A stretch of DNA of 64,000 nucleotides from Eledone cirrhosa (lineage: Eukaryota): assembly GCA_964016885.1 (NCBI GenBank), contig OZ024741.1, forward strand, positions 284,766,001 through 284,830,000, in the 5' to 3' direction. How positions within the stretch are numbered: the first letter of the stretch is position 1; every line of letters begins with the position of its first letter. Of this stretch, positions 3,398-63,981 are shown in pieces. Under the pieces are notes generated by a model that saw only the letters and a list, made by a program, of their open reading frames with translations, had not been told where the DNA came from and ran no database searches. The translations under genes and the position numbers were made by a program.

Positions 3398-6300
3398 ATT
3401 GTTATACTTGGGGAGGGTCATATTTGTGTAATAATATTGCCAGAATCAATAACAGAACACACTCACTGTTTGGTTGGTTTTCGCTTCTGTGTCTTTTATA
3501 TCGGTTAATTTAATTTATTCGGTCCTCAATGTTACCATTGACTGACCAACGGTCAAAAATACAGATACAATATAGACACAAACACATATATATAGTCTAA
3601 CAAAGTTCTTTCGTTGCACATCTGCAACATCGTCAGTGGTGCTATTATGTTTCCTCCCGTTGTATTGTATGCCTACGCCATCTTTATTTAGTCTGTTTAT
3701 TTATCTTTTTTTTGTCTTCTCTGCGCATGCGTGTGTGTGTGTCGTGTTTGATGTGTGTTCGTGTTTGGGTGACTGTGTATTGGTTATTGTATTCTATCTT
3801 AGTTTACTAGTGTGTGTTTATATGTGTTTGTTGTTATTGTGCTTGTGTATGTATTTATTTATTTATACTTCTCTTAGGTCAGTATTGTTTGTTTGGGTGT
3901 TGTTATTCCATTCATTTTTTCTGTTTAGTCTTGGCCTTCTAAGTTCTATTTCGCTGGCCTCTCTGATTTTCCTATCTGCTGGGTCATTTCTGTTTAGATA
4001 TTATTCTAATTTCTATGTTTTCTATTTTACCGTCGTGTTGTTGTCTGGCATGCTCGTATAGTACTGAACCGTTTTTTCATCCTTTTAGTTCCCCTATTGT
4101 TGGTCTATCCTTTCACCTATGCTACAAGCTGTCTCGCCTATGTATGTTGTTGTCATGTTTCTGCAAGTACCCTCTGTACATCTTATGCTATAGACTACGT
4201 TTCTAGTTTTACAGATTATCCGGGGGTTTACTTTACATATAATACATTTCCTATTAGTACAGTGGGTTTTCTTAAAAGGGTCGGTTTTGCTGATCAGGGA
4301 TTTTATGCTGGTTCCTGGCTTTTCTACCACCTTAATCTTTAAGTGGGTCTTTCTCAGGGCCTTTCTACACTGGTTAGCTAATTTCCCTCCAGGGGTAGCG
4401 TCCACCAACATGACACTTTGGTATCTCTGGTTGTCGTACCATGAGGTGGCTTTCCCTATCTTATGTCTAGTCCTATCTAAGCTATTCCATGATTTTCTCC
4501 TGTATAATAGGCAAATTCGTGTCATGTCCAGTTCTATGAGGGTCTTATACTTCTCCGTGGCTCCTTCGTATACTCTGATTCTGTCTCTTTGGTTGTAGCC
4601 AGAGAACTGCATGCGGTTGATGAAGTGTTGGATGTGTCTTTCCATTTCTGTTGGGTCGCACATGCGGGACACGTTCTTCATCACTCGTACCACGTCTGCG
4701 ATCAGAATATTAAACTTAGCACTACTGGACATTGCTGAATTTTTGAGTATCAGGTATTTGGAGGCCATGGGTTTAGCATAGTGTGTGTGGAGAATTAGGC
4801 TCTCTCGTCTATAGTGTTAATCCAGAGTTCCGTATCTAATACAGGTAGTCTATTTTTAGGGTGTTTGGAAGGGAAGTCGATAGTTACAGTTATACTCTGG
4901 TGTATGGAATTAACTATCTGCTGGATGCTTTTCATTGTGCTACGTTCTAAATCAAACTTGTTAGTACTCTCTTGTGGGGATGTCCTTATTACTATATTGA
5001 TGTCGTCTACGTAACGAGAGTACATGATGAGGTCTATGGAGCTCTCATCAAGGAGATCTTTGAGTCTCCTTTCCCACCATACCATAAAAAGGTTGGCAAC
5101 GTCACCAGCTATGCTGACGCCAATGGCTGCTCCCTCATTTTGGGTGTAGATCTTCTCGTTGAATTTGAATATGTGGCCCTTTAGGGTAGTTTTGATATTA
5201 GCCTCTATTGCATGTGCGACCATTTTTCTTACCTGATCATTGTTTTTTTTTTTTTGGGGGGGGGTCCGTATAGCTTTGGTCCACCCAATCCAACTTCCCA
5301 TGGGAGTCTTTTTTGCCATTGTTGTTATGATGGGGGGTCTACCTCTTATGGGTCTACTGGGGCAGAAACGTCTAAGGTCATGGCTGTCTAGGTAGTCAGT
5401 GTCATAGGTAAGTCCAAGTAGGAGGCCCAGTTCGTCTGTGTCGACGTCGCAGAACTCCACCTCACTCTCAATGATTATCTCCACACATTTTTCCACAGCA
5501 AAATCAATGTTAATGGATGGGTACAGTGATACCACATCCATACTGCCTATTATGCAGTTGGATAGGTTTTTGTTTTTGTTGCACTCACTGATTCTGCTGA
5601 GGAGGTCCTCTTGTTGGTCGTTCTGTTGTCGGGTCGTCGACTGTCTTGTGGTATTTGCGGACCCCCATACAAGGTGGTATGCCATTGTTAGACGCATGGA
5701 AGTTGTTGGCAGTGCGTCTGCTTGGCTTCAGGATGTCGGTCCACATCATCATGTGAGCGTTGAGGTTTACTATTTGTCTAATCTTATTTCTAGCTACGGT
5801 GAACTGTGCCTCTGTCTTGTCATCTATTTGTTGTGGTATACAAACCCTTTTATTAAAGGGTAACCTCATAGGATAGATATTACCCATCTTATATGTTTTG
5901 TCAGCTGGATTGAAGAATAGTTTCTCTAAGGGGTTGTCATTATATCTATCGTCATAGTTGTGTGTGTTGCTATTATTGTTATTATGGTGGTTGTTGTTGT
6001 TCCTATTATTAGCATTATTATTATTGTTATGAATGCTAGGTGTATTGTTGCTGTGATTGTTAGATGTATTGTTGTTGTTTTCTCCACCGTTATTGTTGTT
6101 GTTACTTTTATTATGTTTCTTGTTTTTGTTGTTGTGTCTATCATTAATGTTGCTACATGTATTATTTCTATTATTACCACTGTGGTTGTTGTTGTTGTTA
6201 CTCGTATTATTACCATTATTACTCCTGTGGTCGCTGCTGCTGTGTCTGTCGTTTCTATTACTATTATTGTGGTTGTTGTTCTGTCTATCGTTAATATTAA

Positions 6301-6682
6301 TACCATTATTACTATTTCTCACTCTCATGCTATTGTTATTGTTATGACTATTACTATTATAGCTGTTATTTCTATACTCAGAGTTATTGTTTATATTACT
6401 ACTATCGTTATTATTGTTGTTGTTGTCCGTATAGTTGTTGTTGTTTACTTTTACTTTTGCATTCCAACGTATTTTTGTGAAACACTTTTCTAGCTCCGTA
6501 TTGCACTCGATAGGGTTAATCTTTTTGTAGGTAGCACATTTTGGTGGTAGCTGCAGGATTTGTTGTTCTTGTTCACTGATTAAAGTGTTCCCATATTTAT
6601 TTATTTATACTTCTCTTAGGTTAGTATTGTTTGTTTGGGTGTTGTTGTTATTCCATTCATTTTTTCTGTTTAGTCTTGGCCT
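3398..6682 (-). mobile_element. Penelope-like element (RT + C-terminal GIY-YIG), degraded, with partial direct pseudo-LTR
   Basis: 4795..5697: GSMDVVSLYPSI, QNEGAAIGVSIAGDVANLFM, RYVDD, RLPVLD; 4094..4768: CKTRNVVYSIRC...YIGET..SIGERI; 3852-3937 is repeated directly at 6594-6682; Asn-rich low-complexity segment ~5940-6450. Confidence 0.9.
3598..3640 (-). ncRNA. Minimal type I hammerhead motif in PLE 3' pLTR (stem I degenerate)
   Basis: Minus strand: acca CTGACGA t gttgca gatg tgcaac GAAA gaac TT tgtt; same layout as the intact HHR at 20808-20852. Confidence 0.65.
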
Positions 6683-6766
6683 AAATATATATATATATAT
6701 ATATATATATATAGTGACGAAACATAAAAACATAAATCAATTGCATGAACTCATAATCCTTTATTT

Positions 6767-6822
6767 ACTGCTATATATATTTCGATGATAGCCATTGAAT
6801 GGCTATGACCTCATCAGGCAGT
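6767..6822 (-). ncRNA. Type I hammerhead ribozyme with palindromic ATATATAT stem III
   Basis: Minus strand: actgc CTGATGA ggtcatagccattcaatggctatcatc GAAA tatata TA gcagt; stem I actgc/gcagt is perfect; lies in a ~260-bp element (6713-6972) between (TA)n tracts; copies at 36689-36744 and 36806-36861. Confidence 0.85.
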
Positions 6823-7378
6823 TAGTCAATTCTTAGATATGCCAGCTCTGTGATTTTGGTGTTGATGGTTTCAGAGCCTTGGGACATATGAGCTTGTTAG
6901 GGATAATTTAATGTTGTCAGCAGGAATAATCTTAATTCTCATTGGTCAGTTTGTAGATGCTAGTAGGGTTGGTATATATATATATATATATATATATATA
7001 TATATATATATATATATATATATATATATATATATATATATACATTTTCTAACCCAGAAAAAAGAGAAAAAAAAAAAAATTTTCTTCCTAATTATCGTCT
7101 TTTTCTCCCTATTTATATATATATATATATATATATATATATATATATATATATATATATATATATATATATCTTTAAGTCGTTTGGAAGCCTCGACAAT
7201 GCAAATGGGTAAATCTCCGGGTAACAAGGTCCGGTGGTGGAGAGAGATGTAAGTGGGTGTACGTTGAGATCCGTGGTGTGTATAAGATGTGTGAGATGTG
7301 TAGAATGAAGGGAAGAGTATAAAGGATAAAATAAAAATAACAACACAAGAGAGAGTTACCTTGGGAGAGATTTAATAG

Positions 7379-7415
7379 TCCCTATATATTTCGGATTCAC
7401 ATCCATCAACTGGGG
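7379..7415 (-). ncRNA. Decayed minimal hammerhead motif
   Basis: Minus strand: ccc CAGTTGA t ggat gtga atcc GAAA tata TA ggg; helices intact but two substitutions in the CUGANGA box. Confidence 0.45.
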
Positions 7416-62492: not shown

Positions 62493-63047
62493 ATATTGGT
62501 AGAAAGTAAGTGTTTATATATAAACACTTACGTTCTACCAATATATACATTTTTTCTCCCCCATGCTTATCTATTTTTTTCATTTGATTTATACAACCCC
62601 CCCTCCCACACACACACTTTTTCTACCATACCTTTAACACATAGACACCCACCACATTGATCCTGTACTCTACCTTTACCCAGATCACTTTTTAACTATA
62701 TACCCTTATCCAGATCTCTTCACAAACACTTACCTTCTACCACAATTTATACACCCCTTTTCACCCTCACCTGTTCATCTTAATTCATTATATTATTTGA
62801 TTTCAGTTATACTGACCCATGTCCTTACTTACCCACAATGTTGTTGATTGTGCTCACATATGTGGGCGCATTTGCAGTGTATTTATACATATATATACAT
62901 GTGTGTGTGTGTGTGTGTATGTGTATATCTTATGTATGTATATTTTGCAAGAGATGTCAACATGAATGGACCTATTATTTTTATCTAAAGACATTTTTTC
63001 CAATTCCTTCCCGCCCGTCCCCTCAATCTACCGCATTTCTGATTCTT

Positions 63048-63083
63048 TTTTATGATGAAGGACTAGCGTCCGAAACGTTAAGG
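63048..63083 (+). ncRNA. Minimal hammerhead motif with C3 substituted
   Basis: tttt ATGATGA a ggac tagc gtcc GAAA cg TT aagg. Confidence 0.55.
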
Positions 63084-63224
63084 CCCTCTTCCTGCTATAT
63101 CAAGCGTTAACCTAATATATACCTTCCATATACTGTACCGATTGTGTTGTTATTTCTGTTTACCTTTTACATACATATATATTTATATATATGTGTATAT
63201 ATATATGTATGTGTGTATATATAT

Positions 63225-63403
63225 AGGCAGTATCGGTAGAGAGTCGGACACCATGCTTTGAAGCATAGAGTTACGTCCCTTTATGATCTGAGTTCAAATC
63301 TCGCTTGTTAACTTTGCCTTTCATACTTACGGGGTCGATAAAATAAAGTACCAGTAATGTACTGGGCTATTGCTGGCCTTGTACCATAAATAGAAACAAT
63401 TAT
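63225..63403 (+). mobile_element. Near full-length tRNA-derived SINE
   Basis: Head GGCAGTATCGGTAGAG, B-box GAGTTCAAATC, core and tail. Confidence 0.85.
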
Positions 63404-63943
63404 TTGTTTATCTGTAATTATAATTTTTTGCGCGTGGATCTGTGTATATCTTTTCATTTCTTGGTACCCCCTTTTGTGTATAATTATGCTTACCCTTTAT
63501 ATACACCTACCTGCGATTGTGTGTGTATATATATATAGTTTGTCTGCCTACATATATATACACACACACGCACGTGTATGTATGCATGCAAGTGTTTGCG
63601 TGTGGATATATGTATATATATATATATATATATATATATATATATATATATATATATATATATATATATATATATATATATATATATATATATATATATA
63701 TATATATGTATATATATATATATATATATATATGTATATGTACGTGTATGGATTTATATTTATATGTATGCGTATATATGTGGATGTATATATATATATA
63801 ATATATATATTAGAAAGTGAGTTTTTTTTACAAAATGAAAAATAACAGAGGTGCCCTACACGAGTGAAAGTATAAAGAAAAAAAGATGAAATCGAAAATG
63901 CAACTGGAGTCTTTTTTTTTTAAATATATATATTTATTTGGTT

Positions 63944-63981
63944 CCTTTACCGGTTTCGCAGTTCTTCTGCTTTTCAAAAAA
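63944..63981 (-). ncRNA. Minimal hammerhead with U3-A8 core
   Basis: Minus strand: tttt TTGAAAA gcag aagaa ctgc GAAA ccgg TA aagg; palindromic stem III ACCGGT. Confidence 0.7.

Follow-up and report, generated by a model that had tools for sequence, protein, structure and literature searches.

Hammerhead ribozyme elements and Penelope-like element remnants anchored at TA repeats in a 64-kb window of the Eledone cirrhosa genome

Penelope-like elements of the window

The window described here is a 64-kb stretch of the Eledone cirrhosa genome (positions 284766001-284830000 of contig OZ024741.1; assembly GCA_964016885.1, 3.0 Gb). It contains five coding remnants of Penelope-like elements (PLEs) and hammerhead ribozyme motifs of about 12 families, and the 3' ends of the elements that carry these motifs are anchored in (TA)n tracts, both in the window and among copies elsewhere in the genome. 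A TA-directed route of integration shared by PLEs and non-coding hammerhead elements is strongly supported. The base composition of the window is 38% G+C, and perfect TA runs of at least 12 nucleotides (nt) form 62 tracts that make up 3.5% of its length. Positions below are counted from the first letter of the window.

An initial annotation of this DNA had counted five PLE copies. The same number of coding remnants was found by scans of open reading frames (ORFs), Pfam scans, self-comparison and motif inspection, with motif definitions taken from Craig et al. (2021, PMC8557442): two are Neptune-type, two are Hydra-type and the fifth is a short inverted twin of a Neptune-type copy. These type assignments are putative, being made by zinc-finger and linker motifs of the nuclease alone.

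3587-6682, minus strand: PLE1 (Neptune-type), with frameshifted reverse transcriptase (RT) and GIY-YIG ORFs at 4094-6604; RVT_1 domain
14746-17019, minus strand: PLE2 (Hydra-type), with a GIY-YIG ORF at 15279-15833; 3' end abuts the TA tract 14724-14745
16678-17019, minus strand: upstream repeat of PLE2, holding the motif at 16728
19453-20484, minus strand, and 20491-21002, plus strand: PLE3a and PLE3b (Neptune-type), a head-to-head inverted pair (99% over 512 nt)
57534-59069, minus strand: PLE5 (Hydra-type), 5'-truncated, with RT including YRDD at 58269-59069 and endonuclease (EN) at 57534-57965

PLE1 has pseudo-long terminal repeats (pseudo-LTRs) at 6594-6682 and 3852-3937 (a direct repeat, 95.5%) and a decayed family C hammerhead with its core at 3636. 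It is flanked by the TA tract 6685-6713 on its 5' side and by a short TA run (3587-3595) on its 3' side. A protein atlas search with the PLE1 RT returned generic RVT_1 clusters only. The PLE1 linker, CTNRKCIIC, has the form CX4CxxC, as does the linker CIDKKCVTC of the Neptune-type EN ORF of PLE3 (19848-20336). Two Cys precede YIG in both elements (YIGET in PLE3), and two His were seen after it in PLE3 only. The PLE3 pair carries family C hammerheads at about 19600-19650 (minus strand) and 20805-20855 (plus strand). PLE3b ends in the TA tract 20998-21058, and the end of PLE3a lies 57 nt short of a TA tract, which is the tail form discussed below.

PLE2 has the motifs CNCFMPLSNEC (linker, CxCX7C), CKLC (CxxC) and CRH (CxH), and the EN of PLE5 has CNCRNNSKC (CxCX5C), CNLC (CxxC) and CHH (CxH); in both, one Cys lies between GIY and YIG. 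The Hydra-type RT motifs DKT and RWK were not found in frame in PLE2 or PLE5, and the N-terminal part of the RT is missing or frameshifted in both. The last ~327 nt of PLE2 (14746-15070) show 84% identity to the full unit of the non-coding family B and include a U3-A8 hammerhead at 14908-14951. PLE2-like EN sequence (66-74% amino-acid identity) also lies upstream of long copies of family A, and the hammerheads of family C are located in the 3' ends of PLE1/PLE3-type copies. The presence of minimal type I hammerheads in PLE pseudo-LTRs, which the initial annotation had treated as established, is already in print (PMC4209133).

The upstream repeat of PLE2 has an inverted 98% copy at 18928-19269 (plus strand) that ends at the TA tract 19265-19283. 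The motif at 16728 and 19132 was rejected as a working ribozyme: it has GAAA and a palindromic helix III, with a CUGANGA box on neither side, and is read as a probable decayed or half motif of this repeat.

Hammerhead motifs and their families

A scan of the window against Rfam gave zero matches at the gathering score. In E-value mode (up to 10) there were 182 matches, mostly 'microRNA' noise from microsatellites. Among the 150 of these that were listed, Hammerhead_HH9 is the sole ribozyme family, with four minus-strand matches (14891-14961, 18089-18164, 18409-18484 and 18729-18804) that score 24-25 bits against a gathering score of 52. All ribozyme motifs of the window thus escape standard Rfam annotation.

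Because no match reached the gathering score, explicit type I descriptors (CGS order) were written. They call for CUGANGA or its U3-A8 covariant, GAAA, helices I and II, a helix III with A15.1-U16.1 as its closing pair, and any base but G at position 17. The strict descriptor found nine loci in the window, compared with a mean of 0.14 (maximum 3) in 100 dinucleotide shuffles. A relaxed form, in which one bulge or mismatch was tolerated, found 14 loci (13 sites), compared with a mean of 0.68 (standard deviation 0.79, maximum 4) in 100 shuffles. A comparison with shuffled sequence was one of the two tests that the initial annotation had set for itself, and the motif count lies far above the shuffled one. 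In the type-SGC (non-circularly permuted) hammerhead, the blocks follow the order cleavage site, GAAA, CUGANGA, and stems I-III pair across them (Eckert et al. 2023, PMC10085705); strict and relaxed custom descriptors of this type gave zero matches in the window. One locus of the strict type I scan, 9433 on the minus strand, is probably a chance match, with a 57-nt 'helix II' and membership in no repeat family.

The initial annotation had claimed about 20 motifs in about ten families and listed 24 sites. The full descriptor is passed by 13 of these (6767, 14908, 18107, 18427, 18747, 19603, 20808, 36689, 36806, 38345, 56146, 62331 and 63944). By manual parse, five more keep both boxes (CUGANGA and GAAA) intact with one poor helix (3598, 13945, 17821, 35623 and 54902), and in six the core is mutated or absent (7379, 16728, 19132, 39113, 55446 and 63048). 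The observation is confirmed, and its start positions coincide with the motif starts found here at 6767, 14908, 18107, 18427, 18747, 36689, 36806 and 63944; the families number about 12, distributed as follows.

Family A: 6767, 36689 and 36806; variant A' at 13945
Family B: 18107, 18427 and 18747 (three units) and the 3' unit of PLE2 at 14908; variant B' at 62331
Family C: 19603, 20808 and, decayed, 3598
Families D, E, G and I: 35623 (D), 38345 (E), 56146 (G) and 17821 (I)
Family F: 54902 and, decayed, 55446
Family H: 63944 and, decayed, 39113
Doubtful sites: 16728/19132, 7379 and 63048

Relatives of 63048, 39113 and 55446 with an intact motif exist elsewhere in the genome, so the term 'decayed' that the initial annotation had applied to these three sites is fair.

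It is scarcely credible that the motifs are merely chance matches in AT-rich, TA-repeat-rich DNA. Some features are of the kind that such an origin would produce: the helices of families G and H are AU-only, a TA run makes up helix III of A and G, and nothing reaches an Rfam gathering score. Chance matching is disfavoured by the shuffle counts, which are far below those observed, by the recurrence of the motifs at the same place within high-copy families and by the compensatory changes described below.

The relaxed descriptor was also applied to 167 genomic loci (538,162 bp) and gave 205 motif loci, many of them from families outside those searched for. Such bystander families of minimal hammerheads, with no intact copy in the window, were seen in the flanks of loci L126, L149, L092, L036, L144 and L064. 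Helix III is ACUAGU in one of them and ACCACUGGU in another, and a third is the intact form of 63048.

Non-coding hammerhead elements

The motifs outside the PLE remnants lie in the following elements and partial elements.

6714-6972, minus strand: short element of family A with a TA tract on either side; its minimal type I hammerhead lies at 6767-6822
13891-14010, minus strand: element of family A'; hammerhead at 13945-13999; 3' end abuts the TA tract 13863-13890
17690-17956, plus strand: palindromic element of family I with the hammerhead-like motif 17821; ends at the TA tract 17957-17977
17968-18829, minus strand: retrozyme without long terminal repeats (non-LTR), family B; 320-nt units, 2.7 in tandem, with U3-A8 hammerheads at 18107-18151, 18427-18471 and 18747-18791
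35557-35860, plus strand: non-coding element of family D between the TA tracts 35482-35556 and 35861-35881
36571-36906: head-to-head inverted pair of family A; hammerheads at 36689-36744 (minus strand) and 36806-36861 (plus strand)
38331-38476, minus strand: short element of family E flanked by TA (38220-38330 and 38477-38498), its hammerhead lying at about 38344-38398
39080-39180, minus strand: decayed motif of family H; second box GCAA
54647-56038, minus strand: retrozyme-like tandem of family F, 2.6 units of 544 nt; 3' end abuts the TA tract 54629-54642
56143-56208, minus strand: minimal hammerhead of family G with an AU-rich helix I; helix III UAUAUAUA
62204-62420, minus strand: partial unit of family B', with 86% identity to B over 107 nt and a canonical C3-G8 hammerhead (about 62326-62374)
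63020-63120, plus strand: decayed motif (AUGAUGA); its minimal-hammerhead family is represented by intact copies in other parts of the genome
63811-64000, minus strand: element of family H, cut by the end of the window; U3-A8 minimal hammerhead at about 63940-63985

In the family A element at 6714-6972, helix III is (UA)4, and the 3' end, ...TTTCGTCAC, abuts the TA tract 6685-6713. The plus arm of the inverted pair has the same ending, ...TTTCGTCAC, at the TA tract 36907, and its minus arm has a tail of about 75 nt and ends at the TA tract 36501-36570. The A' hammerhead differs from that of A by a compensatory change in helix II and has a C.C mismatch at 10.1/11.1. The 3' end of the B array is anchored in the TA tract 17957-17977, and its 5' end is truncated at unit position 99. 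The H element is the long form, with a tail of about 68 nt ending at the TA array 63606-63810. A second, partial copy of D (38046-38219) ends at the TA tract 38220.

These units are non-coding: overall, the longest ORFs are of 17-41 aa at 34-45% G+C. The 320-nt B unit has a G+C fraction of 0.34 and a longest ORF of 33 aa, and the 544-nt F unit has a G+C fraction of 0.40 and a longest ORF of 41 aa. The hammerhead candidate of D (35620-35715) has a 60-nt helix II and a 3-bp helix I. In F (about 54893-54981), helices I and III are both good, with 7 bp each, and helix II is weak; the copy at 55446 has an A9G change. The 17821 motif has intact boxes, with helix II unpaired at its base; the second arm of the palindrome (17744) is truncated.

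The helices show compensatory change. In the B superfamily, the core is UUGAUAA (U3-A8) in B and PLE2 and CUGAUGA (C3-G8) in B' and one genomic relative, and helix II is GUAC/GUAC, GCUU/AAGC, GCAU/AUGC or CGC/GCG, paired every time. For the G type, an alignment of 17 distinct genomic sequences was used, in which 97.4% of cells pair, compared with 38-46% when the 3' partner is slid. Changes on both sides occur in six of the nine pairs of helix II (26 cells), and the observed covariation score was reached by none of 500 shuffles. This covariation indicates selection on the RNA. At the fourth position of the same helix (columns 19/46), all 17 sequences have a C.C mismatch, flanked by pairs that covary; this conserved mismatch may form a non-canonical contact.

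Family E has a 5' part (38400-38476; loci L044-L062) with the sequence …CCGGGTTGAATCGGAGG…, or GGGTTCAATC in older copies, that resembles the T-arm region of a tRNA. The element may combine a head like that of a short interspersed nuclear element (SINE) with a hammerhead-bearing, PLE-type tail. A hairpin duplication of the hammerhead arm occurs in many E copies.

Docking of 3' ends in TA tracts

The initial annotation had described nearly all carriers as docked at (TA)n. In line with this, 21 of the 24 sites have a TA run of 8 nt or more no farther than 200 nt away, compared with 37% of random positions. Among 16 carrier 3' ends, the distance to a TA run of 10 nt or longer is at most 5 nt in 13, compared with about 5% of random positions and one of 22 SINE termini. 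The placing of some of these 16 ends had been done by eye, and the independent test therefore used genome copies. The whole genome was searched with each family, and the junctions of the best-scoring 10-29 copies per family were examined, with a SINE family as control. A first look gave, as lower bounds, at least 2265 candidate copies for B, 194 for A, 428 for E, 4150 for D, 172 for C, 2691 for F, 90 for H and 1189 for the SINE. A copy was scored as docked if a TA run of at least 10 nt begins within 8 nt of its 3' end.

Family A: 28 of 29 copies docked
Family B: 10 of 10
Family C: 14 of 24; eight more reach TA after a tail of 48-70 nt
Family D: 19 of 19
Family E: 11 of 14 (five of 19 copies do not reach the 3' end of the query)
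Family F: 16 of 18
Family H: 10 of 19; eight more reach TA after a tail of 69-71 nt
SINE control: 3 of 29

Over the seven families, 108 of 133 copies are docked, compared with 3 of 29 SINE ends and 6.7% (184 of 2740) of positions drawn at random from the outer flanks of these loci. This comparison of termini was the second test set by the initial annotation, and hammerhead-element ends are indeed much closer to TA than either control. The control SINE, a family of about 190 nt, has 11 copies in the window. Its genome candidates are 97-99% identical, and its target-site duplications, at ATTATT-like sites, are clear. Its window copies include the following.

12536-12704, 13082-13214, 22237-22368, 27174-27356, 45352-45482, 59318-59473 and 63223-63405: copies of the control SINE

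A TA run at a 3' junction could be a target of insertion or a product of it. The initial annotation had suggested that the elements may seed or extend the (TA)n tracts, and such tracts could arise as 3' tails made at integration by slippage of the RT on a short UA stretch, like the microsatellite tails of some long interspersed nuclear elements (LINEs). Consistent with this, TA is nearly constant at the 3' junction and less frequent at the 5' junction (present at the true 5' junction in only one of about four simple B copies, and clearly absent in 3 of 21 family A junctions examined), B has a terminal (TA)5-7 of its own, and A and G have (UA)4 as helix III. However, E copies have TA on the 5' side in 12 of 14 cases and on the 3' side in 11 of 14, both outer ends of composite F insertions are bounded by TA, and, of the 21 A 5' junctions, no fewer than 15 have TA. 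Most short A copies are flanked by TA on both sides. Moreover, the RNA of A, C and H continues past the short end as a non-TA tail, so the TA at that end is not templated by the element. Creation of the tracts by the elements is therefore improbable. The presence of TA on both flanks and of non-TA RNA beyond the short end argues that the tracts are targets of insertion, a pre-existing tract being split by the incoming element. Of the two proposals of the initial annotation, the shared integration route is strongly supported, and the seeding or extension of tracts is not supported. At 34.8-40.3 kb, some 25 TA tracts are interspersed with D, A, E and other inserts; this cluster likely derives from one or a few tracts that nested insertions have split repeatedly.

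Anatomy of the insertions

In all families the 3' end is fixed and the 5' ends are variable. Five families (A, B, C, F and H) have two alternative 3' ends at a fixed spacing. B ends at unit position 320 or at 27-29, with a tail in 5 of 10 loci, and F ends at position 544 or 456. In C the 3' tail measures about 62 nt and in H about 68 nt; A, as seen in the 36689 copy and L020, has one of about 75 nt. A typical copy of B or F has one full unit and, before it, a partial unit of 22-456 nt. The internal junction between units is identical to that in the tandem arrays, which indicates that copying of the template went on beyond a single unit.

Head-to-head inverted partial copies are common. The direct arms of F end at position 544 in 18 of 18 loci. 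An inverted arm is present in 11 of these and ends at 454-456, running into TA, in 10 of the 11, so that the composite is bounded by TA at both outer ends. The signature of PLE-type insertion (tail, 5' truncation, partial tandems, inverted copy and TA target) is found in B, F, H, A and C.

Satellite-like repeats can also spread by DNA-level processes, such as unequal crossing-over and segmental duplication, or by a DNA transposon that targets TA, and the hammerheads would then be inert passengers. The tandem arrays at 17968-18829 and 54647-56038 and the small palindromic elements within TA tracts fit such an origin, and some copies do lie in segmental duplications (the L025/L026 pair, and copies of E on C12 with about 60 kb between them). 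This explanation is nevertheless very unlikely. Copies are scattered over many contigs at 90-99% identity, the 3' end is fixed and the 5' truncation variable, without terminal inverted repeats, the same 3' modules terminate RT/GIY-YIG ORFs, and the covariation of the helices points to selection on the RNA.

Proposed model of insertion

The window is best explained as a landing field in which Hydra- and Neptune-type PLEs and about ten short non-coding hammerhead families have inserted with their 3' ends in (TA)n, the non-coding copies being most likely made by the RT and GIY-YIG endonuclease of the PLEs (probability about 0.8). Under the proposed model, the GIY-YIG endonuclease would cut a TA tract, and reverse transcription would be primed by one 3'-OH end or by both, beginning at either of two fixed positions within the RNA and so giving the short end or the long 'tail' end. 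Copying would proceed toward the 5' end of the RNA and break off at varying points. In the retrozymes of 320 nt and 544 nt, more than one unit would be copied from a circular or multimeric template. Where two cDNAs were primed from opposite sides of the break, head-to-head arms would result. The PLE enzymes would thus copy their own RNA and that of hammerhead-bearing parasites. A PLE enzyme is the presumptive copying protein and would cut both strands in vivo; the elements would also self-cleave and form RNA circles.

Several observations weigh against this explanation or limit it. Minimum free energy (MFE) folds of seven motifs are weakly better than those of shuffles (z -2.2 to +0.9), and the MFE structure of B differs from the hammerhead fold. 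This result is not decisive, because minimal PLE hammerheads are thought to act as dimers, as described in PMC4209133. The motifs stay below the gathering score of the Rfam models, and a helix is weak or atypical in D, F and 17821. The copies sampled in the genome are the best-scoring, youngest ones rather than a random sample, and the low frequency of TA at the 5' junctions of simple B copies has been noted above. The over-run in B and F is explained equally well by a multimeric linear transcript or a circle. Finally, the G5 of the core box UUGAAAA is absent (UUAAAA) in 9 of 19 copies of family H (L159-L177), all of the same young family, so spread seems not to need an active ribozyme.

Rather than serving only as a processing ribozyme, the hammerhead region may be part of an RNA handle recognized by the Hydra- and Neptune-type PLE enzymes, as the short non-coding families keep little besides the hammerhead fold and the 20-260 nt up to the two fixed RT start sites. 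The rule followed by the F arms (distal start site in the direct arm, proximal one in all but one of the inverted arms) would then reflect the priming of the two sides of one (TA)n break by differently positioned RNA-protein complexes. This extension of the model is tentative and rather doubtful at present; if true, the F-arm rule would be an in vivo readout of the assembly of inverted PLE insertions.

Relation to known systems

Much of this picture has precedents. According to Craig et al. (2021, PMC8557442), hammerhead-bearing Hydra PLEs insert into (TA)n, which is the preferred target of Naiad and Hydra PLEs and a bias in Neptune, and PLE insertions are marked by optional tails, partial tandems and inverted 5'-truncated copies. 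With the Hydra clade as described there, PLE2 and PLE5 share an RT followed by a C-terminal GIY-YIG domain, together with the CxCX5C linker (PLE5; CxCX7C in PLE2), CxxC, CxH, a single Cys between GIY and YIG and the lack of CCHH; PLE2 further shares the small size (about 2.3 kb), a hammerhead in the 3' region and insertion into (TA)n. Unlike those elements, PLE2 and PLE5 are decayed by frameshifts and 5' truncation, and the hammerhead core of PLE2 is U3-A8. This covariant is already known in PLE hammerheads, having been described for Schistosoma PLEs (Cervera & de la Pena 2014, PMC4209133).

The Neptune and Nematis PLEs, as described in PMC4209133 and by Craig et al. (2021), have in common with elements of the window the CX4CxxC linker of PLE1 and PLE3 (CX2-5CxxC in the clade definition), the Cys and His residues around the GIY-YIG core (CCHH, seen in full in PLE3) and the minimal type I hammerhead. 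Further shared features reported in PMC4209133 are an unpaired base at the start of helix II, a 1-bp helix III and opposite-strand motif pairs 100-700 bp apart. In contrast, the helix III loop of family C (GAAC) is not palindromic.

Non-LTR retrozymes and their proposed mobilization by PLEs are also in print (PMC7229834; PMC7761336; 2026 preprint 10.64898/2026.07.22.740005). B and F resemble the metazoan non-LTR retrozymes (Cervera & de la Pena 2020, PMC7229834; Li, Clavereau & Pollet 2026, 10.64898/2026.07.22.740005) in being non-coding and low in G+C, in occurring as monomers to short tandems and in having a type I hammerhead in each unit. Co-occurrence with PLEs is likewise shared, and B is homologous to a PLE 3' end. 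F, at 544 nt, exceeds the quoted range of 170-400 nt. For the TA anchoring, dual 3' ends and inverted arms of non-coding retrozymes, no description was found in literature searches or in passages of PMC7229834, PMC7761336 and 10.64898/2026.07.22.740005, supplements aside.

The closest biochemical comparison is with a purified Poseidon PLE, which in vitro cuts AT-rich DNA on both strands and extends both, and which starts reverse transcription at two internal RNA sites that delimit a 'tail', hammerhead cleavage being dispensable (Frangieh et al. 2024, PMC11167929). The elements studied here agree with this behaviour in their two fixed 3' ends, in their inverted arms and in how H copies lacking G5 have spread. 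The Poseidon PLE belongs to another clade and a vertebrate host, however, and its tails are 30-40 nt, compared with 28-88 nt here. In addition, the two F arms use different start sites, whereas no strand difference was reported for the Poseidon PLE in vitro.

The window is therefore a dense and well-behaved example of a known system, and its unusual density is real. It adds sequence-level support to the published but unproven idea that PLEs mobilize animal hammerhead 'retrozymes', because the non-coding families share marks specific to PLEs (the tail, the inverted arms and the TA target). It also offers experimental material in the 320-nt U3-A8 retrozyme B, together with its likely Hydra-type partner.

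Other elements in the window

The remaining features are LINEs, an RT-bearing remnant and simple repeats.

1-3300 and 28431-34000: two LINEs
40916-43700 (minus strand) and 45685-46062: RT-bearing remnant, RVT_1 at E 1e-7 in one ORF
46515-47121: (TACA)n microsatellite, about 600 bp
49183-49431: (AGAG)n microsatellite
59791-60212: (AGA)n microsatellite, about 420 bp
8201-8530: (TC)n microsatellite

Pfam gave a weak RVT_1 match only for the remnant at 40916-43700, in which no GIY-YIG or APE domain was detected, and it was therefore left unclassified. No hammerhead carriers were seen at the edges of the long non-TA microsatellites. Perfect or near-perfect palindromes of about 62 and 93 nt (36398-36459 and 62022-62114) lie between or beside TA tracts and give weak matches on both strands to 'MIR7723' in the E-value mode of Rfam. 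They may represent another kind of TA-embedded element, such as a hairpin resembling a miniature inverted-repeat transposable element.

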